In this document: in pieces, positions 10,799 to 56,107 of the stretch | Layout of the letters: the number at the start of each line of letters is the position of its first letter | Numbering within the stretch: position 1 is the stretch's first letter | Assembly (NCBI GenBank): GCA_017410505.1 | Contig: JAFQQR010000027.1 | Location: 31,461-95,460 of the forward strand | DNA length: 64,000 nt | Direction of reading: 5' to 3' | From: Clostridia bacterium | GTDB taxonomy: Bacteria > Bacillota > Clostridia > TANB77 > CAG-508 | The notes under the pieces: generated by a model | What the model was told of the DNA's origin: nothing | The model's database searches: none | Seen by the model: only the letters and a program-made list of their open reading frames with translations | Made by a program: the position numbers and the translations under genes

Positions 10799-11449
10799 TT
10801 ACATTTTTCTGAACACACCGCAAACTTTTCCTAAAATTTCGCATGTTGGAACTATTATTGGATCCATTGTGCTGTTTTCTGGTTGTAGTCTAATATGGTC
10901 TTTTTCCTTATAGAATGTTTTTACTGTTGCTTCATCTTCTATTAATGCTACAACTATTTCTCCATTTCTTGCATCATTTTGTTTTTTTATTAATATATAA
11001 TCTCCATCTAGAATTCCTGCTTCTATCATGCTTTCTCCTCTAACTGTAAGCATGAAGCAGTCTGAATTTCCTACAAAATCTATTGGAATTGGGAATGTAT
11101 CTGTTACATTTTCTACCGCTAAAATTGGAGCTCCAGCTGTTATCCTTCCTACTACTGGTACGTCAACTAATTCTTTTTGTGTATAGAAATCTTTTGTTGA
11201 TGTCTTTTTTGTTTCTCCATCTGTTCCTTTTAATAATCTTAAAGTTCTTCCTTTTTTATCTTGTTTTTTAATATAACCTTTATCTTCTAATCTCTCTAAA
11301 TATCCATGTACTGTTGCTGTTGAACTTAATCCTACAGCTTTACCTATTTCTCTTACTGATGGTGGGTATCCTACTGTCATTATTTGTTTTTCAATATATC
11401 TTAATATTGATTTCTCTCTACTATTTAATTCAGGTCTCTTTCTTGGCAT
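10799..11449 (-). CDS. lexA: LexA repressor
   Basis: [60 protein letters not shown] is the winged-HTH, followed by the S24 peptidase domain (GESM...K). Confidence 0.9.
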
Positions 11450-31880: not shown

Positions 31881-31910
31881 GATTTGGGGACGTATTAAAA
31901 ATCCCCAAAT
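31877..31910. terminator. Bidirectional terminator hairpin (ATTTGGGGA...TCCCCAAAT) between dac and the helicase gene
   Basis: The 9-bp perfect stem is flanked by T/A runs. Confidence 0.5.
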
Positions 31911-31916
31911 TCTAAT

Positions 31917-34541: not shown

Positions 34542-37220
34542 TTATTTTTCAAGTCTTTCCATTACTTTTTGAAGCATTTCTCTATATTTTTCTAATTTAT
34601 CTTTTTCCTCTTGAATTTTCTTTTCAGGTGCTTTGTTTACAAATCCTGGATTTGAAAGCATTTTTTCACATCTTGCAACTTCAGCTTCTAATTTAGTTTT
34701 TTCTTCTTCTAGTCTTTTTCTTTCTTCTTCCATATCAACTAAATCTTCAAGCGGCATATATAGTTCAATTCCATCTTGCATTATAGCTATGCTGTTTTCT
34801 GCTATTCCTGTTTTATCTTTTTGAACTCTTATTGATGTTCCAAATCCTAGTTTTAATAAGAATTCTTGTGCTTCTAAAATTTCTTTTTCATATTTTTCAG
34901 TTACAAATATTAATTCTGATTTTTTAGATGGATGTATATTCATATTTGCTCTTATATTTCTTATTTCAACTATTATTTGTTTTATTTTTTCAACTGTTTG
35001 TTCTTCTATTTCAAATACAAATTCTTTTCTTATTCTTGGCCATTTTGAAACCATTAAATCTTCATCTTTATATTTTACTAATTTATCAAAAATTTCAGAT
35101 GTTACAAATGGCATAAATGGATGTAATAATTTTAACGATGTTTCAAATACATGGTTTAATATGTCACTTACTGCTATTTTTGTTTCTTCATTTTCACTAT
35201 ATATTCTTGATTTTACCATTTCTATATACCAATCACAGAATTCATTCCAAATAAATCCGTATATTTTATCAATAGCAATTCCTAAATCATAGTTTTCTAT
35301 ATTTTTTGTTACATCTGCTACTAATTTGTCTAATTTATTTAAAATCCATTTATCTTCCAATGTTAGATATTCTGGGTTGTATGAATGTGTTTCATGGTTA
35401 TATACTTTATGACAGAATTCTTTTACTTTTTCTTCATCTGGTGTATTCATTATTATGAATTTAGCTGCATTCCAAATTTTATTTGCAAAGTTTGATGCTT
35501 GGTCTAGTTTTTCTGGCATGTATCTTATATCATTTCCCATTGTTGTTCCTGATAATACAGAAAATCTTAATGCATCTGCTCCATATTGGTCGATTATTTC
35601 TATTGGGTCAATTCCATTTCCTAATGATTTTGACATTTTTCTTCCTTGTGAGTCTCTTACTATTCCATGTACTACGACATCTTTAAATGGATTTTGATTT
35701 GTTAATTCTAATCCTTGTGTCATCATTCTTGAAATCCAGAATGTTATAATATCATATCCTGTAACTAATGCGTTTGTTGGATAGAATGTTTTATAATCTT
35801 CATTTTCTTCGTTTGGCCAACCAAGTGTTGAGAATGGCCATAATGCTGAACTGAACCATGTATCTAATGAATCTTCATCTTGGTGTAATTTATTAGAACC
35901 ACATTTTTCACATTTTTCTGGCATCTGTTTTGCTGCATGCATATGTCCACATTCATCACAATAGTAAATTGGAATTCTGTGTCCCCACCATAATTGTCTT
36001 GATATACACCAATCTTGAATATTATCTAACCAGTTGAAGTACATTTTTTCATATCTTTTTGGTACAAATTTTACTTCATCGTTTCTAACTGAGTCTGCTG
36101 CTCTTTTTGCTAAATCTTTCATACTTACAAACCATTGCTCAGAAATTCTTGGTTCTATTGTATTATGACATCTATAGCATTTTCCAACATTATGAGTATA
36201 GTCCTCTGTTTTTACTAATGCTCCTATTTCTTCTAGTTTTTTAACTATTTCTTTTCTTGCATCTATTGATTTCATTCCTTTATATTCTGGAACTAAATCT
36301 CCCATTATTGAACTGTCATTAAATACTTCTATAATTTCTAAATTGTTTCTTAATCCAGCTTGATAATCATTTGGGTCATGTGCTGGTGTAATTTTTACAC
36401 ATCCTGTTCCAAATTCTTTTTCTACAAAGTCATCTGCAATTATTGGAATTTCTTTATTCATAATTGGAAGTATACATTTTTTTCCTATTATATCTTTATA
36501 TCTTTCATCATCTGGATGTACTGCAACAGCTGTATCTCCAAGCATTGTTTCTGGTCTTGTTGTTGCAACAATTATATATTTATCTGTATCTTTTATTTGA
36601 TATCTTATATGCCATAAATGTGAAGCTTCATCTTCATACTCAACTTCTGCATCTGATATTGTTGTGTGACATGATGGACACCAGTTTATCATTTTTTTAC
36701 CTTTATAAATTAGATCTTTATTATATAAACTAATAAATTGTTCTAATACTGCTTCAGATAAACCTTCATCCATAGTAAATCTATTTCTTTCCCAATCACA
36801 AGAACATCCAAGTCTTCTTTGTTGTTTTTGAATAGTTCCACCATATTCCTTAGTCCAAGCCCAAGCTCTATCTAAAAACTCTTCTCTTGTAATATCAGCT
36901 TTTGTTAAGCCTTCTTCCTTTTTCATCTTTTCAACAACTTTTACTTCTGTTGCAATAGCAGCATGGTCTGAACCTGGAAGCCATAAAGTATTATAACCTT
37001 GCATTCTTTTAAATCTTATTAAAATATCTTGTATTGTACCATCTAAAGCATGTCCCATGTGTAATTTACCTGTTACATTTGGTGGTGGCATCATTATACA
37101 ATAACTTTCTTTTGTTTTGTCCATACTTGGTTTAAAGTATCCTTTTTCTTCCCAGTCTTGATATAGCTTTTCTTCAAAATCCTTTGGGTTGTATTTGTCA
37201 TTTAATATTTTATCTTTCAT
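34542..37220 (-). CDS. valS: Valine--tRNA ligase
   Basis: HIGH (PNVTGKLHMGHAL), KMSKS (KMSKSLGN), the editing domain and the C-terminal coiled coil are all present. The true start MKDKILNDKYNPKDFEEKLYQDWEEKGYF has a GAGGAGG RBS. Confidence 0.95.
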   Translation of the reverse strand: MKDKILNDKYNPKDFEEKLYQDWEEKGYFKPSMDKTKESYCIMMPPPNVTGKLHMGHALDGTIQDILIRFKRMQGYNTLWLPGSDHAAIATEVKVVEKMKKEEGLTKADITREEFLDRAWAWTKEYGGTIQKQQRRLGCSCDWERNRFTMDEGLSEAVLEQFISLYNKDLIYKGKKMINWCPSCHTTISDAEVEYEDEASHLWHIRYQIKDTDKYIIVATTRPETMLGDTAVAVHPDDERYKDIIGKKCILPIMNKEIPIIADDFVEKEFGTGCVKITPAHDPNDYQAGLRNNLEIIEVFNDSSIMGDLVPEYKGMKSIDARKEIVKKLEEIGALVKTEDYTHNVGKCYRCHNTIEPRISEQWFVSMKDLAKRAADSVRNDEVKFVPKRYEKMYFNWLDNIQDWCISRQLWWGHRIPIYYCDECGHMHAAKQMPEKCEKCGSNKLHQDEDSLDTWFSSALWPFSTLGWPNEENEDYKTFYPTNALVTGYDIITFWISRMMTQGLELTNQNPFKDVVVHGIVRDSQGRKMSKSLGNGIDPIEIIDQYGADALRFSVLSGTTMGNDIRYMPEKLDQASNFANKIWNAAKFIIMNTPDEEKVKEFCHKVYNHETHSYNPEYLTLEDKWILNKLDKLVADVTKNIENYDLGIAIDKIYGFIWNEFCDWYIEMVKSRIYSENEETKIAVSDILNHVFETSLKLLHPFMPFVTSEIFDKLVKYKDEDLMVSKWPRIRKEFVFEIEEQTVEKIKQIIVEIRNIRANMNIHPSKKSELIFVTEKYEKEILEAQEFLLKLGFGTSIRVQKDKTGIAENSIAIMQDGIELYMPLEDLVDMEEERKRLEEEKTKLEAEVARCEKMLSNPGFVNKAPEKKIQEEKDKLEKYREMLQKVMERLEK

Positions 37221-37237
37221 AATCTTTATCCTCCTCT

Positions 37238-37519
37238 TGTCCATTTGGGACGTTTCTTTTTGGACAAAAATGTCCATTTGGGCCAGATGTTGTGTCCTTT
37301 TGAATACCATATTTTCCTTTTTGTTCTTTTGTTAATTCTTCTCGTTTACTTAATTCATAATTTAATAATTCATCTTCTAGTCTTTCTCTTAATGTCATAA
37401 ATCGTAGTGCTTCTTTAAATAAATTTTTCATTTATACCTCCTTTGTCCATCTTGTCCGTCTGGGATGTTTCTGTTCTTTTGGGTACGTATCTATTTGGGA
37501 CATGTCCCAGAATGGACAT
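37238..37519. repeat. MITE-like element with terminal inverted repeats of the TGTCCAWWTGGGACGTTTC family, inserted between the valS T-box terminator and the valS RBS
   Basis: The left end TGTCCATTTGGGACGTTTCTTTTTGGACAAAAATGTCCATTTGG closely matches the uvrA-copy TIR. The right end carries the inverted copies GGGACATGTCCCAGAATGGACAT. Confidence 0.5.
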
Positions 37520-37524
37520 AAAAA

Positions 37525-37790
37525 TAAAATAGCCCACCCTTATTGTAAAATAAGGGCGAGCTTTTATCTCACGGTACCACCTTAATTATTATCTATTGCT
37601 ATTATTTAGATAACATCTCATTTAGCTTTAACGCAGCTTTACGGATAATCTTAAGTTTATTTTCGGATTATCAACTCCAAAGTTACTTTCCATTTATCCT
37701 AATTTCAGAAGTTTACAGCCTATGACTTCTGTTCTCTTTAAATTGGTGCTTAAATGTACTTTTCTTTTTCTTTGTTTTTATTTTATTATG
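37525..37790 (-). ncRNA. T-box riboswitch leader (valine specifier GUA) for valS
   Basis: On the minus strand: a Stem I AGAGA motif, the specifier GGCUGUAAAC, and the T-box sequence AATTAAGGTGGTACCGTGAG. The terminator hairpin GCCCTTATTTTACAATAAGGGTGGGC is followed by a U tract. Confidence 0.7.
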
Positions 37791-41516: not shown

Positions 41517-44351
41517 TCATAAATACTTCTCCAAAAACTTTCCAGTATAACTTTGCTCATTCTTACAAATCTGTTCAGGTGTTCCAACAGCAACAATTTG
41601 TCCTCCTCCATCTCCACCTTCTGGTCCTAAATCAATAATATGGTCACATGTTTTTATTAAATCTAAATTATGCTCTATAACAATTATTGTATTCCCAGTA
41701 TCAACTAATCTTTGTAAAATATCTACTAATCTATGAACATCAGCTATGTGAAGACCTGTTGTTGGCTCATCTAAAATATATAATGTTTTTCCTGTTGCTC
41801 TTTTAGAAAGTTCTGTTGCAAGTTTAACTCTTTGTGCCTCTCCTCCTGATAATGTTGTTGATGGTTGCCCTAATTTAATATATCCTAGTCCAACATCATT
41901 TAGTGTTTGAATTTTTTGTTTTATTTTTGGTATTTTATCAAAAAATTCTAATGCCTCTTCTACTGTCATATCTAGTACATCTGCTATTGTCTTTCCTTTA
42001 TATTTTACTTCTAAAGTTTCTCTGTTATATCTTTTTCCTTTACATACTTCACAAGGTACATAAACATCTGGTAAAAAGTGCATTTCTATTTTGTGCACAC
42101 CATCACCATTACAGCTTTCACATCTTCCCCCTGCTACATTAAAGCTAAATCTTCCTTTATCAAATCCACGTAGTTTTGCTTCATTTGTTCCTGCAAATAT
42201 ATCTCTTATTAAATCAAAAACTCCTGTATATGTTGCTGGGTTTGAACGAGGTGTTCTTCCTATTGGTGATTGGTCTATATTGATTATTTTGTCTATATTT
42301 TCTAAACCTTTTACTGCTTTACATTTTCCTGGTTTCTCACTTGCTCCATTTAATTCTTTTGCTATAGTTTTATATAAAACTTCATTTACTAATGTTGATT
42401 TTCCTGAGCCTGAAACTCCTGTAACACATGTGAATACTCCTAGTGGAAATTTTACACTTATATTTTTTAGATTATTTTCTGTTGCATTTTTTACTTCTAT
42501 TACTTTTGATTTAGTATGCTTTCTTCTTGTTTTTGGAACTTCTATTTTCTTTCTTCCACTTAAATATTGTCCTGTTATCGAATTTTTTACTTGTTTTATT
42601 TCTTCTGCTGTTCCTTGCGCCATAACATTTCCACCATGAACTCCTGCTCCTGGTCCAATATCAATTATTTGGTCTGCTGCGTACATTGTGTCTTCATCAT
42701 GTTCTACAACTAAAAGTGTATTTCCTAAATCTCTTAATTTTTTTAATGTTGCTATTAATTTGTCATTATCTCTTTGGTGAAGTCCAATACTTGGTTCATC
42801 TAATATATACATAACTCCTGTAAGCCCTGAACCTATTTGTGTTGCTAAACGAATTCTTTGAGCCTCCCCTCCTGATAATGTGCCTGCACCTCTTGATAAT
42901 GTTAGATATTCAAGTCCTACATCTATTAAAAATTGAAGTCTTGTGTTTATTTCTTTTAATATCAAATCTGCAATCATCGCTTCTTTTTTTGTCAATTGTA
43001 CATTACTTAAGAACTCTTTCATTGCTTTTATTGACATATCTGTTATTTCATTTATGTTTTTATCTCCAATTTTTATACATAATATTTCTTTCTTTAGACG
43101 AGCTCCATTACATGTTGTACAATGAGAATTTGTCATATACATTTCATAAAAGCTTCTCATTCCTTGTGATTTTGTTTCGCTATGGCGTCTCTCTAATGTT
43201 GGTAACACTCCTTCAAATGGAGAAGTGAATTTTCTTACACCTGCAGCTGATTCATATTGAAAGTCTATTTTTTCATCACCTGTACCATATAAGATTTTTT
43301 CTAAAAACCATCTTGGTAATTTTTTAATTGGCACGCCTTTTATTTTTACTCCATAATGTCTTCCTATGCTTTCGAAATACATTCTTGCCATTGTATCTCC
43401 TTTTTTCATAGTACTTGACCCAAATGCTTTTACTCCATCATATAAAGTTTTATTTTTATCTGGTATTATTAAGTCCTCATCCATTTTCATTAAAAATCCA
43501 ATTCCCATGCAATCTGGACATGCTCCATATGGATTATTAAATGAAAACATTCTTGGTGTTAGCTCTGGAAAACTGAATCCACAATCTGGACATGCATAAT
43601 TAGAACTATACAATACCATTTTTTCTCCATCTTTGCTGAATATATTTACTAATACAAGATTTTCTGCGTGTTTTAATGCCACTTCTACTGACTCTGTAAG
43701 TCTACTTCTTATTTCTTCTTTCACGACTAATCTATCTACAATTAATTCAATTTCATGCTTTTTGTTTTTCTCTAATTTGATTTCATCTGATAAATCATAA
43801 ACTTCTCCATCGATTCTCACTCTAACAAATCCATCTTTTTGGTAACTTTCTAATTGTTTTACAAATTCACCTTTTCTTCCTCTCACAACTGGTGCTAATA
43901 TTTGTATTTTTGTACCTTCTTCTAAAGCCATTATATTATCAATAATCTGGTCTATTGATTGTTTCTCTATTTTTTTGCCACAATTCGGACAATATGGTAC
44001 CCCTATATTTGCATATAATAAACGTATGTAATCATATATTTCTGTAACTGTTCCAACTGTTGAACGTGGATTTTTTGATGTTGTTTTTTGGTCTATTGAT
44101 ATTGCAGGCGATAGCCCCTCTATTGATTCTACATCTGGTTTTTCCATTATTCCTAAGAATTGTCTTGCATATGATGATAGACTTTCTACATATCTTCTTT
44201 GCCCTTCTGCATATAATGTATCAAATGCTAGTGATGATTTTCCTGAACCTGATAGCCCTGTTACTACTACCATTTTGTCTCTTGGTATTTCTAAATTTAT
44301 GTTTTTTAGATTATGTTCTTTTGCTCCTTTTATTATTATTTTATCATTCAT
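41517..44351 (-). CDS. uvrA: Excinuclease ABC subunit A
   Basis: Two ABC ATPase modules ([27 protein letters not shown]) and zinc-finger Cys clusters. The start [25 protein letters not shown] has a GGAGGA RBS. Confidence 0.95.
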
Positions 44352-44364
44352 TTTTATTCCTCCA

Positions 44365-44572
44365 ATGTCCAAATGGGACGTTTCTAAATGAACAAAAATG
44401 TCCATTTGGAAACGTTCTTTTGAGATATTATACTATATTTTTTTATTTAAAACAAGAGTTTGGTAAATATTTCTTCTCTTTATTGAATATAAACCATATC
44501 CTAGAATTTAAATACAAAAGATCGGTTCTTTTTGGACATTTTTGTCCATTTAGAAACGTCCCATTTGGACAT
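44365..44572. repeat. MITE-like element of ~208 bp with perfect 20-bp TIRs (ATGTCCAAATGGGACGTTTC / GAAACGTCCCATTTGGACAT), extending to ~40 bp with 1 mismatch
   Basis: Read from the sequence. The left TIR abuts the uvrA RBS. There is an internal subterminal direct copy TGTCCATTTGGAAACGTTC. Confidence 0.6.
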
Positions 44573-44578
44573 GACAAA

Positions 44579-44614
44579 ATATCCCAACCAATGCAATTGC
44601 ACTGGTTGGGATAT
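44579..44614 (-). terminator. Rho-independent terminator of the P-type ATPase gene
   Basis: The hairpin ATATCCCAACCAATGCAATTGCACTGGTTGGGATAT is followed by a U-run on the minus strand. Confidence 0.6.
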
Positions 44615-44646
44615 TTTAAAGTGTTACTGTTTTTTGAATAGATTAG

Positions 44647-47259
44647 TTATTCTTTAATGCCCATCTTATTCACAATAGCCTTGCGAATAAGATCAATAGG
44701 AATAATCATAAAGGCAATGAGAATAGCTACAATCCAATTACTAAGTGTTAATGGAGTTGTTCCAAACACTTTACCTCCGAATTGGATAATGATAATCTGA
44801 AAAGCAGCTACTGCAAGCATTACTATAATAAAGTTGTGATTTTCATGAATATGTTCAAACAGATTCATGCTTTCAGTTCTTGCATTAAGAGAATTCCACA
44901 AGATTGCTAATATGAAGGTTGCAAACATGAAAGTTCTTATAACACTAATATCGGTACTTCCTATTATATTGTAAATACCGAATATGTTTTTCAAGATACC
45001 AAGACAAATGATTGTGATGAATACACCTCCAACCAGAATTGCACTTTTGAGATATTTGTTAAGAATATCAGCAGTACGTGCTACAGGCTTTTCTCTCATG
45101 TAACTTTCTCTTGCCGGTTCTTGTCCGAATGCAATGGCAGCTAATGTATCCATAATCATATTAATCCAAAGAATCTGTATGATAGTAAATACTTCGGTCC
45201 AACCAAGAATAGGTCCAAGCACCGCTGTAAAGACTGTACTTACATTGACAGTCAACTGGAAGATAATAAACTTCTTTACTGATTTACTCATAGTACGCCC
45301 ATACATAATTGCATCTGCAATAGAAGTTAAACTATCATTAAGAATAATAATATCTCCTGCTTCCTTTGCAACTTCTGTTCCTGACCCCATAGCGAACCCA
45401 ACATCAGCTTTATGTAGAGCTGACGCATCATTTACACCATCACCAGTCATACCTACTACTTCTCCAATTGATTTGCTTATCTCAACAAGTCTTTCTTTGT
45501 CAGAAGGAACTGCTCTTGCAACCACCTTTAAATTAGGTAATGCTTTGATGAGTTCTTTATCAGACATTCTTGCTAGTTCTTCATGAGTTATGCAAAGATC
45601 TGTCGGTTTAGTAATGAGACCTGCTTCTCTTGCAATAGCCTTAGCTGTAGCCAAGACATCGCCAGTTACCATTGTTACATTGACACCTGCATTCAACATT
45701 TTTTTAACAGAATCCTTAACATCTTTACGTACATCATCTCTGATAGAAATCAAAGCTACAAAAGTTTTCTCATTGGCACTTTCTTTTACAATAGCAATAA
45801 CTCTCATTGCTCGTTCGGTCTGTGCATCCCAAGTTTCTTTCAATTTACTCTGGATTTCACTTGTCAAAGTCTGCTTATCACCGTTTTTGTCAATATAACT
45901 AGTACATTCATTCATAATGATGTCAGGAGCACCTTTCATGTACTTAACACCATCTGGCATAGTAACAGACGCGTATTTTACTTTTGAATCAAAAGGTTCT
46001 GAACTTTCAATTACACTCTTATCAATATTAACGCCATTTTCAATGGCAAGATAAGTAATCAAAGCACGGTCAGTATCATTTGAACCAATGGCTTTTCCAT
46101 CGCCACTAATTGTAGCGTCATTATTTACTCCTGCACCAATAATAATATCTTCCCGTACTGAATCACAAATGTTATCAAAATCTTCATAAACGGTAGAATC
46201 ACCTGTAATAACATTTGCAACCGTCATTTTACCATTTGTTAAAGTACCAGTTTTGTCAGTAAAAATATGAGTCAAATATCCAGCCGTTTCTATAGCCTTG
46301 GGATTTTTTACATAGATATGTGCTTTAAGCATTTTGCCTACATTTAACCCCTGTACCAAAGTATTCATTAACGGCAATCCTTCGGGAACAGCCATAACAA
46401 TAATAGAAACACCTAATACAAGACTACTTAGAATCAAGTATGCAATGTTGCCAACTGTATAATGAGACATATTGATAATTCCTAAAATCAGATGAATAAC
46501 TGCTGCTGCAGCACCACCACAATATCCAAAGGTACCAATATTTTTAGCAAGTTTGTCTAACTTCTCTTCAGAAGGTGTTTTGCTTTCATCTTTCTCCTGC
46601 AAAGATACATTGATTGTACCCAATACAGTGTTGTCACCAACATCGGTAACCTGCATAATTGCTGAACCAGAAGTAACCACACTTCCACGGAAACATTTGA
46701 ATTTTGTGAACAAATCGTCATTGCTTGGAACAGGATTGTCTCCAAGAACAATCTTCTCCGCTTCTCGGCTTTCTCCATTAAGAGCTGCCTGATCAACTTT
46801 AAGAGAACCATCAATCAAGATGCCATCCGCTGGTATCTTATCTCCAGGTTGCAAGAATACACAATCCTCACAAACAATATCATTAATTGATAATTCAATA
46901 AGCTGTCCATCACGATAAACCTTGACTTTAATCTGACTTGCCTCACGTTGGAGTGCTTGAGCACCACGATCTTGCTTGTAGTTAATATAAGTACTAATAA
47001 AAGAAACTGCAATAATAACGATAAAAATCGCTACTGCACTGAACCAGTCATCAGAACCCATATCGGGCCAAATACGACCAATGACATAGAATACTACTTC
47101 AAGTGCCAGAGCTACCATCAGGATTTTCAACCAAGTGTCCTGAAGCGACTCCTTGAGCATATCCCAAAAGCTCTCTCTTTCTCGTTGTGTAAGTTCATTA
47201 GAACCTTTTGCTTTGTTAGCAATTGCTTGCTGCGTTGTTAAACCAATAGTTTTCTTCAT
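44647..47259 (-). CDS. Calcium-translocating P-type ATPase (PMCA/SERCA-like, type IIA/B)
   Basis: DKTGTLT phosphorylation site (FTDKTGTLTNGKMTV), TGDGVNDASAL hinge, 10 TM segments. 870 aa. Confidence 0.9.
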   Translation of the reverse strand: MKKTIGLTTQQAIANKAKGSNELTQRERESFWDMLKESLQDTWLKILMVALALEVVFYVIGRIWPDMGSDDWFSAVAIFIVIIAVSFISTYINYKQDRGAQALQREASQIKVKVYRDGQLIELSINDIVCEDCVFLQPGDKIPADGILIDGSLKVDQAALNGESREAEKIVLGDNPVPSNDDLFTKFKCFRGSVVTSGSAIMQVTDVGDNTVLGTINVSLQEKDESKTPSEEKLDKLAKNIGTFGYCGGAAAAVIHLILGIINMSHYTVGNIAYLILSSLVLGVSIIVMAVPEGLPLMNTLVQGLNVGKMLKAHIYVKNPKAIETAGYLTHIFTDKTGTLTNGKMTVANVITGDSTVYEDFDNICDSVREDIIIGAGVNNDATISGDGKAIGSNDTDRALITYLAIENGVNIDKSVIESSEPFDSKVKYASVTMPDGVKYMKGAPDIIMNECTSYIDKNGDKQTLTSEIQSKLKETWDAQTERAMRVIAIVKESANEKTFVALISIRDDVRKDVKDSVKKMLNAGVNVTMVTGDVLATAKAIAREAGLITKPTDLCITHEELARMSDKELIKALPNLKVVARAVPSDKERLVEISKSIGEVVGMTGDGVNDASALHKADVGFAMGSGTEVAKEAGDIIILNDSLTSIADAIMYGRTMSKSVKKFIIFQLTVNVSTVFTAVLGPILGWTEVFTIIQILWINMIMDTLAAIAFGQEPARESYMREKPVARTADILNKYLKSAILVGGVFITIICLGILKNIFGIYNIIGSTDISVIRTFMFATFILAILWNSLNARTESMNLFEHIHENHNFIIVMLAVAAFQIIIIQFGGKVFGTTPLTLSNWIVAILIAFMIIPIDLIRKAIVNKMGIKE

Positions 47260-47516
47260 AAAGAACCTCCTTAAATTGTTGACTTTTTATATTGGTTTTC
47301 AGTTACTTAAAAATTAGCTCTACATATCATATCCTCCTTACCTTTCTATTCAATTGTTAATGTACAACATGTATATTAATTGATATCGTATCATCAATTA
47401 ATATACTAAATTATACGAACAGTTTTCACTTTGTTGCACATACATTTCTGCAACTTTTGTAAAAATTTCGCACGTTTAGTATTATAACACGGTACATTTT
47501 TTATGTCAATCTTTTT

Positions 47517-47742
47517 CAGTTTTTTGTAAAATCTGCATTACATCTCAGCATAAATACATATATATTAAAATTCCGTTCCTTGCTGGTCGGACTAATCATA
47601 TGAGCAGAATATAGGTATGTCAAAGTTTGAATAGTTAATCTGGGTGGTCTGTATGTTTTTGTGTCATTCCAAACTGCGCGTCACTGCATTTTAATATATA
47701 TGTATTTATGCTGAGATGTAACGCAGATTTTACAAGAAACTG
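47517..47742. repeat. 55-bp near-perfect inverted repeats (47517-47571 and 47688-47742, 2 mismatches) flanking a 116-bp core; inverton-like or MITE-like
   Basis: Left arm CAGTTTTTTGTAAAATCTGCATTACATCTCAGCATAAATACATATATATTAAAAT. Right arm ATTTTAATATATATGTATTTATGCTGAGATGTAACGCAGATTTTACAAGAAACTG. Confidence 0.6.
47595..47623 (-). promoter_or_regulatory. Consensus sigma-A promoter TTGACA-N17-TATGAT inside the IR-flanked core, currently oriented toward the P-type ATPase gene
   Basis: On the minus strand, TTGACA sits at 47623-47618 and TATGAT at 47600-47595, with a 17-nt spacer. Confidence 0.45.
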
Positions 47743-48012
47743 AAACTTAAATTTTCGTTTTTTAATCATCTCGCTTTACTTTTTATGTAAATTATAATAT
47801 AATATCCTAGCATACCGGTATTTTTAACATTATAAAAAAATTTTATAATGAATGGAGTAATTATTTTTATCGGTAGATAATTAAAATAGTTTCTCTAGCA
47901 AACAAAATTATCCTCAGCAATTGCAAGGTTAAATTTTGTTATTCTTAAGAAAAAACTATTTTTGTAACAATAATTTCATACTTAAATAACATCAAGAAAG
48001 GAAAATATCATT

Positions 48013-49068
48013 ATGGATTATCGGACTATCAACAATTATGCAGCAAATATTATCAGAGCATTTGATAAAAATTCTGGAAAAGAAGTTTTACAGTACGCAG
48101 TAGGAGCTTTGCTTTATATGCCTGGAACCAATACTAAGATTTCAAAAAAAATCCTCAAAAAGGAAAATCCAAATATTAAATCTTTGGTGCTTTGTTTGGA
48201 AGATTCTATTGGTGATAGCATTGTTGAACAAGCTGAGGAATGTGTAAAAAATACACTTATCGAAATTCACACTGCAATTACTACTGGGCGATTTTCCATT
48301 TCTGATTTACCATTAATTTTTATCCGGGTACGGGAAATCGGACAAATGACACGACTTGTTGACAAATGTGGAGATAGCATTTCTACAATCACAGGCTTTG
48401 TTCTTCCAAAATTCAATAAAATTAATGCTTCAAATTATATAAATGAATTTGAGCAGATTTTGGATTCGGTAGATACTTCGTTATATTTAATGCCTATTAT
48501 TGAAAGCAGAGATATAATGCATAAGCCTACTCGTTTAGAGAATTTGTGTTATATTCACAATGCACTTAAAAAGATTTCAGACCGTACTCTTTGTATCCGT
48601 GTAGGTGGAACTGATTTTTGCAATATCTTTGGAATCAGACGTCCTATAAATTCAACAATTTGGGATATTAGAGTTATTTCTGATTGTATTTCTGACATCA
48701 TTAATATTTTTGGCACAGATTATGTCGTTTCTGGACCAACATGGGAATTTTTTGAAAAGAAAGACTCCCCTAGTCAAACCGATTGGGTTGAAGGATTAAA
48801 TAAAGAACTTTTCTATGATAGACTCAATGGCATTATAGGAAAAACTTGTATCCATCCCACTCAAGTGCCTTATGTTCAACAATCTTTGATTGTTTCTGAA
48901 ACAGACTACACTAATGCACTTCAAATATTAAGCATGTCATCTCAAAGTTTTGTTGGTGTAAAAAAAGGAACTAATGGTAACCAGATGAATGAATCCAAAA
49001 CTCATATAAATTGGGCGAAAAAGATTCTTGCATTATCTGGAATTTATGGTATTAAGAAAGAAATTTAG
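48013..49068 (+). CDS. HpcH/HpaI aldolase/citrate-lyase-like family protein of the Ter-associated biosynthetic module
   Basis: 351 aa. LCLEDSIGDS is a citrate-lyase-beta-like acidic motif. It sits in an operon with the PRTase, StiP-like and HAD genes beside terD/telA. Confidence 0.55.
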   Translation: MDYRTINNYAANIIRAFDKNSGKEVLQYAVGALLYMPGTNTKISKKILKKENPNIKSLVLCLEDSIGDSIVEQAEECVKNTLIEIHTAITTGRFSISDLPLIFIRVREIGQMTRLVDKCGDSISTITGFVLPKFNKINASNYINEFEQILDSVDTSLYLMPIIESRDIMHKPTRLENLCYIHNALKKISDRTLCIRVGGTDFCNIFGIRRPINSTIWDIRVISDCISDIINIFGTDYVVSGPTWEFFEKKDSPSQTDWVEGLNKELFYDRLNGIIGKTCIHPTQVPYVQQSLIVSETDYTNALQILSMSSQSFVGVKKGTNGNQMNESKTHINWAKKILALSGIYGIKKEI

Positions 49069-55930: not shown

Positions 55931-56083
55931 ATTTCTATCACCCTTTCCTATAATGTTAATTTAGCTATTTTAATAAGCTGAATTGCTTTGTATATTTTAT
56001 CATGCTTTACATAAAAAGTAAAGTGTTTGTATAGATGAGTTGTAAAAAGTAGTTTCTGTCCAAAAAGAAATGTCCCTATTGAA

Positions 56084-56107
56084 CACAATATTAAAGGAGT
56101 AGGCATT
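56084..56107. terminator. Hairpin GGAGTAGGCAATGCCTACTCC with a flanking T-run (bidirectional)
   Basis: Read from the sequence. It lies directly 3' of the minus gene 56110-56481. Confidence 0.45.

Follow-up and report, generated by a model that had tools for sequence, protein, structure and literature searches.

A 208-bp inverted repeat between uvrA and a P-type ATPase gene

We analysed a 64-kb stretch of Clostridia contig JAFQQR010000027.1 (hereafter the window, at its full length), in which an inverted repeat of 208 bp occupies positions 44365-44572, between uvrA and the P-type cation ATPase gene upstream of it (Table 1). The 20-nt sequence ATGTCCAAATGGGACGTTTC at 44365-44384 has its exact reverse complement at 44553-44572; 26 nt of the two arms are identical, one mismatch occurs over 40 nt, and complementarity extends over 58 nt at 88%, leaving 92 nt between the two 58-nt arms. 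In 100 dinucleotide-preserving shuffles, with 3 mismatches permitted, the 20-nt arm match was found 0.00 times, indicating that the inverted repeat is real and far above chance. A sequence-only reading of this DNA had described a complete MITE (a miniature transposable element bounded by inverted repeats) with perfect 20-bp inverted repeats and arms of ~40 bp with one mismatch, placed between uvrA and the terminator of the ATPase gene. The repeats and the arms are as it had described them, and the gene coordinates, together with a palindrome at 44576-44617, agree with its placement; a simple terminator scan made no call on this palindrome, despite its terminator-like look. It had also assigned the arms to a repeat family, and they are indeed members of one, which is dispersed, non-coding and polymorphic among relatives, but the 208 bp as one complete MITE with an AT-rich core did not hold up: the interior appears to be a conserved uvrA promoter, no target-site duplication is seen, and the true unit is ~29 nt.

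The interior corresponds to the predicted resident uvrA promoter

Promoter and transcript boundaries are predictions throughout. The interior contains a block, CCAAAC(T/C)CTTGTTTT-N-ATATAGTATAAT, that is present upstream of uvrA in every orthologous locus that reaches the promoter (L113/114, L115/116, L117/118, L122, L083 and L093), at the same position as in the window. The syntenic relatives L083 and L093 came from a pattern scan of one genome per species, and the further orthologous loci were obtained through UvrA homologues at 97-93% identity; the top UvrA match (P0001) was an unrelated double-UvrA fusion and was set aside. Repeat content varies around this block: L093 and L122 keep the uvrA promoter with zero repeats, the uvrA leader of L083 holds a single unit, and uvrA of L113 has another array in its leader and no repeat upstream of the promoter. 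When the window was compared with L113, the promoter block was identical at 46 of 49 positions (94%), as against 43 of 64 in the repeat-filled leader. The distal arm is in no relative's uvrA locus, being confined to the window's species. A BLAST search of the 208 bp against all loci returned matches to the arms alone elsewhere, and the interior matched only the orthologous uvrA promoters. Because the interior is orthologous, occurs in relatives without the arms and matches no other repeat locus, the 208 bp is not a single mobile unit, and comparison among relatives identifies the 92-nt interior as native uvrA promoter rather than transposon cargo. The promoter function of 44427-44470 is predicted from this conservation and from a consensus -10 hexamer.

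A perfect palindrome, AAAC-TCTT-GTTT (AAAC-N4-GTTT; 44450-44461), overlaps the -35 hexamer of uvrA and is kept in all orthologous uvrA promoters seen (L083, L093, L113-L118 and L122), with one variant base in L115/116. The earlier claim that no LexA box is evident here stands as far as the Firmicute consensus CGAAC-N4-GTTCG is concerned, none being found in the uvrA promoter, but this conserved palindrome at the -35 qualifies it. The palindrome is absent upstream of the window's lexA (10808-11440, minus strand) and specific to uvrA. Being neither common to lexA nor of the consensus form, it was rejected as a LexA box; it may be an operator, and we regard it as a candidate.

Each close relative (L113, L115, L117, L119 and L120) has a different gene next to uvrA on the upstream side, be it a small open reading frame (ORF) preceded by a divergent helix-turn-helix (HTH) gene, a PBP gene, a 170-aa ORF or a ToxN-like gene; the region of the ToxN-like neighbour also carries reverse-transcriptase and PD-(D/E)XK genes. 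The promoter therefore lies at a recurrent synteny breakpoint or variable island, and the distal repeat of the window is located at this junction. ATPase orthologues, sought for an empty distal-arm site, were not present in the fetched loci.

Each arm is a doublet of a ~29-nt hairpin unit

The repeat unit is ~29 nt long and reads TGTCCA-N2-3-GGGACGTTTC-N4-TGGACA, where the outer hexamers TGTCCA and TGGACA form a 6-bp stem and the asymmetric centre GGGACGTTTC alone sets the orientation of the unit. Each uvrA arm is a doublet of units in opposite orientation, with an intact outer and a decayed inner unit; the two intact outer units are mutually inverted and, therefore, together look like 20-bp terminal inverted repeats. 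The proximal intact unit turns its GGGAC side toward the uvrA ribosome-binding site, with a gap of 2 nt, and the distal intact unit turns the same side toward the terminator-like hairpin of the ATPase gene, with a gap of 4 nt. Inspection of TGTCCA units for covariation of an extended stem gave sporadic instances only, and an extended stem was not adopted.

In total, the window has 3 repeat loci in 64 kb (Table 1), one of which is a repeat-rich stretch of 284 nt between the terminator of the valS T-box and the valS ribosome-binding site. A search of Rfam 15 with the window and 18 loci returned the T-box and tRNAs alone, with the repeat matching no family; under relaxed settings, a plant miRNA model matched a long hairpin, spuriously, at 32.7 bits where 230 are required. 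The valS repeat stretch also contains an orphan 73-aa ORF (37210-37431, minus strand) with a strong Shine-Dalgarno (SD) sequence, whose final codons are encoded by repeat units and whose stop overlaps the valS start (ATGAAAGATAA). This ORF is confined to the same species (one 86% variant) and has no match in Pfam, on which grounds it was ruled out as conserved cargo; the idea that it is a duplicated valS start was also rejected. A second, unrelated inverted repeat is found at 47514-47745, in the intergenic region from which the ATPase gene and a gene starting at 48013 diverge. It has 78-nt arms that are 86% complementary and 76 nt apart; one arm has a 44-nt, 89% match in L117, and Rfam gives no match.

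Table 1. Positions of the repeat units and of the genes and signals around them in the window.
Feature	Position	Strand	Remark
valS	34542-37220	minus	
Same-family doublet	37238-37283	plus	directly upstream of valS SD
Same-family cluster	37445-37520	plus	between valS T-box terminator and SD of orphan 73-aa ORF
valS T-box (RF00230)	37549-37781	minus	
uvrA	41517-44351	minus	A of start codon at 44351
uvrA SD, GGAGG	44359-44363	minus	2 bases from the element
Proximal intact unit, TGTCCA-AAT-GGGACGTTTC-TAAA-TGAACA	44366-44394	plus	outer half of proximal doublet
Proximal decayed unit, TGTCCATTTGGAAACGTTC...	44399-44422	plus	forms uvrA leader hairpin with intact unit
uvrA promoter block (predicted)	44427-44470	minus	conserved in orthologous loci, with or without repeats
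uvrA -10 (predicted), TATAAT	44427-44432	minus	17-nt spacer to -35
uvrA -35 (predicted), TTGTTT	44450-44455	minus	rejected by the 4-of-6 rule of the promoter scan
Distal decayed inner unit, TGTCCAAAAAGAACCGATC... (minus-strand reading)	44515-44542	minus	
Distal intact unit, TGTCCA-AAT-GGGACGTTTC-TAAA-TGGACA	44543-44571	minus	
Terminator-like palindrome, 21+21 nt	44576-44617	minus	downstream of P-type ATPase gene
P-type cation ATPase gene	44647-47259	minus	gene upstream of uvrA; Pfam families
Solo unit, TGTTCAATAGGGACATTTCTTTTTGGACA	56057-56085	minus	just after terminator hairpin, before promoter of next gene

Units of the same blueprint flank RAYT-like transposase genes

A weak tblastn match led to a 252-aa Y1_Tnp protein in L031, and relatives of this protein were collected by a metagenome scan and a protein search. 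These proteins, which are about 250 aa long and resemble the tyrosine transposases (RAYTs) that go with repetitive extragenic palindromes (REPs), have intact HAH and YIHxNPVK motifs. The Clostridial proteins match Pfam Y1_Tnp (PF01797) with E-values of 1e-11 to 1e-13, and their best NCBIfam match is REP_Tyr_transpos at 70-71 bits, under its cutoff of 80. In the related Clostridia contigs L139, L149, L150, L154, L138 and L133/L031, their genes lie between units that follow the blueprint of the window's units (stem, 2-3 nt, GGGGACG, 7-9 nt, stem), with GGGGACG upstream and CGTCCCC downstream on the coding strand, that is, as inverted arrays. The stems of the flanking units are TGAACA/TGTTCA, TGCACA/TGTGCA or GATGATTTT/AAAATCATC. 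A dispersed three-unit cluster in L139 abuts the SD of another gene, with the same polarity as in the window.

We built a covariance model, R1, solely from twelve transposase-flanking units. Five window units were among its top 13 matches in 128 kb of searched strand, with E-values that are individually marginal (37238: 0.011; 37472-37502: 0.037; 44543: 0.049; 44366: 1.1; 56057: 1.9). The stems TGTCCA, TGAACA and TGCACA covary around a fixed GGGGACG, with 96.9% of cells paired and four of six pairs compensatory, values reached in 0 of 500 shuffles, in an alignment that was fitted to the model and leans to the model's own structure. The top match of R1 in the window (E 0.0034) is a hairpin between convergent genes, GGATTTGGGGACGTATTAAAAATCCCCAAAT at 31882-31912, which holds the TTGGGGACGTA motif of the transposase-flanking units in L154 and L138 without the usual stem; this hairpin may be one more variant or a coincidental match.

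A transposase cognate to the TGTCCA subfamily was searched for by tblastn in the window and all loci, with six RAYT-like proteins as queries and a negative result, and four homologue contexts sought for the same purpose gave sister subfamilies only. Many public contigs with RAYT-like genes measure just about 0.9-1.5 kb, little more than the gene itself, which suggests that the repeat arrays on either side routinely break metagenome assemblies. Two loci of the window's species, L126 and L127, likewise stop inside or close to the T-box leader of valS.

The repeats fill intergenic spacers with a fixed polarity and turn over between relatives

A census of loci picked by the repeat pattern itself, together with the 64 kb of the unbiased window, gave 58 clusters in about 40 loci of low-GC Clostridia, from at least 22 species-level metagenome-assembled genomes, all of them in intergenic spacers. 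Clusters are singles, doublets or alternating arrays, with ><, <>, <>< and ><>< common. A gene start is adjoined by 34 of the 58, a gene end or terminator by 35 and both by 19, the last of which therefore fill short intergenic spacers. An SD, a start codon and an ORF lie within 45 nt of the GGGAC-side end in 28 of 63 units, and of the other end in 0. At uvrA, valS, serS, thrS, glmM, pth, ychF and others, 1-8 nt separate the end of a unit from the SD, and arrays start 1-4 nt past -10-like hexamers. A composite of ~88 nt with sharp edges recurs at 8 or more loci in two genomes, where it runs from 1-4 nt past a -10-like hexamer to the ribosome-binding site, and it is found in both orientations relative to the neighbouring gene (L004, L018). 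No consistent target-site duplication was seen at uvrA (flanks ...cctcca|A...T|gacaa), at about 60 other copies or at the ~88-nt composite.

The arrays differ between close relatives. The valS leader is empty in L115 and L122, with only about 30 nt from terminator to ribosome-binding site; it has two tandem units in L083, a variant element with GAGACA stems in L119 and L120, and the 284-nt version in the window. Strains with UvrA proteins of 93-97% identity carry different arrays in the uvrA leader. Two unrelated leaders within L113 are identical at 67 of 72 positions, as against 43 of 64 for the orthologous leaders of the window and L113; on these alignments, a likeness that is greater within a genome than between orthologues is the mark of a spreading or gene-converting repeat, not of a conserved operator. 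Units are kept at orthologous sites in three species (L082, L093 and L102), and the element has the same sequence throughout in two samples from this species, the window's own, with neither movement nor inversion seen.

Other inverted pairs of units also enclose native features, namely a terminator in L016 and the divergent tRNA/thrS promoter region in L068. In L068 (2361-2497), a repeat doublet lies 1 nt from the mature 5' end of a tRNA gene; units can therefore adjoin the starts of RNA genes and not ribosome-binding sites alone. We also observed a hairpin subfamily, GATGATTTTTTGCTCCGTCCCTAAAATCATC, with another stem and the same CGTCCC loop (L031 1790-1840 and 7690, minus strand; L048 3887; L054 6573), which recurs in several genomes and has one copy directly downstream of the Y1 transposase gene of L031. 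Further stem variants are TGAGACA/TGTCTCA in the valS leader of L119/L120, TGAACG/CGTTCA in L014 (6652-6714) and GGGAAA/TTTCCC in L016 (7963-7989). Because TGTCCA-type units are found in the same genomes as the L014 and L016 variants, at least some genomes contain more than one subfamily.

Relation to known repeat systems

TIRYT genes, which are RAYT-like, lie between inverted repeats that have GGGGWSAS in common; some of the repeats belong to dispersed families, whose copies are single, dimeric or grouped (Di Nocera et al. 2013, PMC3733652). Most TIRYTs correspond to TnpAY1 subclass 2.1, equivalent to RAYT group 1, and are long proteins with a C-terminal extension; no REP-like hairpins were found beside subclass 2.1 genes (Quentin et al., PMC6006769). 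RAYT group 1 is present in Clostridia (Bertels et al., PMC5581495). The system described here resembles these TIRtrons in that inverted repeats with a G-rich tag enclose a RAYT-like Y1/HUH gene, whose product of about 250 aa has a C-terminal extension, and in that more such repeats are present at other places in the genome, singly, as dimers and in groups. It differs from them in its tag (GGGGACG instead of GGGGWSAS), in carrying the tag inside a 6-bp hairpin whose stem covaries between subfamilies, in placing many copies in 5' leaders beside the SD, and in that a cognate gene of the TGTCCA subfamily was not recovered from the window and the loci.

With the proteobacterial REP/BIME/REPIN-RAYT systems of E. 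coli and Pseudomonas (bacterial interspersed mosaic elements, BIMEs, and REP doublets, REPINs) it shares extragenic palindromes of 20-40 nt in many copies, a conserved unpaired tag with a variable, here covarying, stem, clusters of alternating orientation and inverted doublets, the absence of target duplication, and vertical persistence with homogenisation within the genome. A single-copy Y1 transposase gene between its own repeats, likewise typical of those systems, is seen in the sister subfamilies, with no such gene for the TGTCCA subfamily or in the window. In contrast, canonical REPs have GT[AG]G as their tag, at the base of a GC-rich stem, and are for the most part found downstream of genes, and the host phylum and transposase subclass are other than here, where the REP_Tyr_transpos score stays under its cutoff. 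Bacterial MITEs (Correia elements, RUP, BOX) are similarly small, non-coding, dispersed and bounded by inverted repeats, and they are often co-transcribed with their neighbours and can supply or modify promoters and RNA hairpins. Unlike the present repeats, which enclose host sequence, make zero duplication and have a unit of only about 29 nt, a MITE is one moving unit with a family-specific interior, a target-site duplication and a DDE transposase acting in trans. Invertible promoters (fimS-type, and the invertons of gut Bacteroides and Clostridioides) also place a promoter between inverted repeats, whereas here one orientation was seen, no dedicated recombinase was seen, and the repeats come from a dispersed family.

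Two repeat clusters bracketing a promoter as the favoured explanation

We consider that 44365-44572 consists of two REP/REPIN-like clusters of a TIRYT-type system that bracket the resident uvrA promoter, the family being substrates of a RAYT-like Y1 transposase, and we give this explanation a probability of about 0.65. The enzyme for which the repeats most likely serve as substrates is a TIRYT-type, RAYT-like HUH/Y1 transposase (RAYT group 1, TnpAY1 subclass 2.1). Such an enzyme would recognise the single-stranded hairpin together with the invariant GGGGACG tag and would copy or move units without target duplication, and the copies would then be homogenised within the genome. At uvrA, the proximal doublet fills the leader between the approximate, predicted start of transcription and a point 2 nt short of the ribosome-binding site, and the distal doublet lies 4 nt past the terminator-like hairpin of the upstream ATPase gene, at the synteny breakpoint. 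A fixed target tetranucleotide in the manner of IS200/IS605 was rejected, the left flanks being heterogeneous.

The consequences for uvrA are likely incidental. The uvrA leader has a predicted fold of -19.7 kcal/mol in which the SD is unpaired, and a relative's uvrA leader has a predicted hairpin of -60 kcal/mol; a stem-loop that leaves the SD free might stabilise the uvrA mRNA. The two arms could also pair with each other, either in DNA, where a cruciform would result, or, if read-through RNA exists, in a long duplex with a predicted energy of -86 kcal/mol (z -12.7). Sequestration of the SD, or an RNA thermometer, was rejected, as the SD is unpaired in the predicted folds.

Several observations weigh against the two-cluster explanation. 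No Y1 transposase gene turned up in the 64-kb window or in the loci with TGTCCA-type units, and the transposase link therefore rests on sister subfamilies in other contigs. The E-values with which R1 found single window units are marginal (0.011 to 1.9), and the covariation alignment follows the model as noted above. The Clostridial proteins would belong to subclass 2.1 by their length and C-terminal extension, the latter giving weak HTH hints. The tag GGGGACG departs from the published GGGGWSAS at its seventh position, and mobility was not observed, the two samples of the same species being identical. Many units lie in 5' leaders with a fixed polarity, whereas published REPs are mostly downstream of genes, and this placement could reflect function rather than selfish spread.

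Alternative explanations

That last point underlies the strongest rival, which we nevertheless hold to be unlikely: that the units are a cis-regulatory module of leaders, acting between the transcription start and the SD of housekeeping genes as RNA hairpins (protein-bound or stabilising the 5' end) or as DNA operators, and thereby co-regulating these genes or stabilising their mRNAs, instead of being selfish DNA. The strict polarity toward the adjacent gene start (28 to 0), the ends of units 1-8 nt ahead of the SD at uvrA and the other genes listed above, the opening of arrays 1-4 nt after -10-like hexamers, the persistence at orthologous sites in L082, L093 and L102, and the predicted leader hairpins that leave the SD free all speak for it. 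Yet the make-up of the arrays turns over between strains with 93-97% identical UvrA, orthologous leaders exist without units (L093, L122, and L115 at valS) with no sign of gene loss, and paralogous copies in one genome are more alike than orthologous ones. A regulatory leader also fits poorly with the 35 of 58 clusters at gene 3' ends or terminators, with a distal uvrA arm outside the predicted transcript, with a composite that occurs in both orientations to the neighbouring gene (L004, L018), with the same blueprint flanking transposase genes, and with the lack of a match among Rfam families. A combined form is somewhat less probable again, namely that the repeats of one Clostridial lineage are a polarity-fixed leader module kept by a domesticated TIRYT and filling the whole 5' untranslated region of many housekeeping genes (uvrA, valS, serS, thrS, glmM, pth and others). 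If true, this would add a genome-wide, fast-evolving layer of control on mRNA stability or translation, and would give RAYT group 1/subclass 2.1 its first hairpin REP system.

A genuine 208-bp MITE, that is, a non-autonomous transposon of the DDE type with terminal inverted repeats of 20-58 bp that brought an outward promoter to uvrA, is largely refuted and, in our estimate, very improbable. Its terminal repeats are perfect over 20 bp, its size and AT-rich interior are typical of MITEs and its ends read TGT...ACA, but relatives without the arms have the orthologue of the interior as their uvrA promoter, no other repeat locus contains this interior, the target-site duplication is absent, and other inverted unit pairs bracket unrelated native features (L016, L068). 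Among five features of classical MITEs, the terminal inverted repeats are present, whereas a target-site duplication, copies with the same interior, empty sites for the whole element and an autonomous insertion sequence (IS) are not. The sequence-only reading had proposed to look for empty sites in relatives and for a full-length IS with matching ends. The former do exist for the repeats in the valS leader of L115 and L122, but uvrA loci without the arms still carry the interior; the latter was not found in the window, the 154 loci, the PLSDB plasmids, the INPHARED phages or IMG/VR, the last three of which gave nothing or chance matches. We give an equally slight chance to an invertible promoter, in which recombination between the arms would flip the uvrA promoter and make nucleotide-excision repair phase-variable. 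A promoter between inverted repeats, 20 bp perfect and up to 58 bp, has the architecture of known invertons; however, the 'on' orientation is seen in both of two independent assemblies of the species (assemblies collapse minority orientations) and at every orthologous locus, a search that was not exhaustive noticed no recombinase next to the element, and the arms come from a dispersed family, most of whose members do not border promoters.

Significance

Under the favoured explanation of two clusters around a resident promoter, two independent REP-type insertions mimic a perfect MITE and thereby form an annotation trap, in which a pipeline that depends on terminal inverted repeats would mistake host promoters for the cargo of a transposon. 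The repeats are apparently an undescribed REP-like family in uncultured gut Clostridia that is paired with RAYTs of subclass 2.1/TIRYT, for which hairpin REPs were previously unreported, and their placement by ribosome-binding sites with a fixed polarity is unusual. If confirmed, REP/RAYT biology would reach the Firmicutes, and the family would offer a tractable case in which to ask whether such repeats affect the stability of leader RNA, cause breaks in metagenome assemblies or favour rearrangements, the distal arm being located at a synteny breakpoint.

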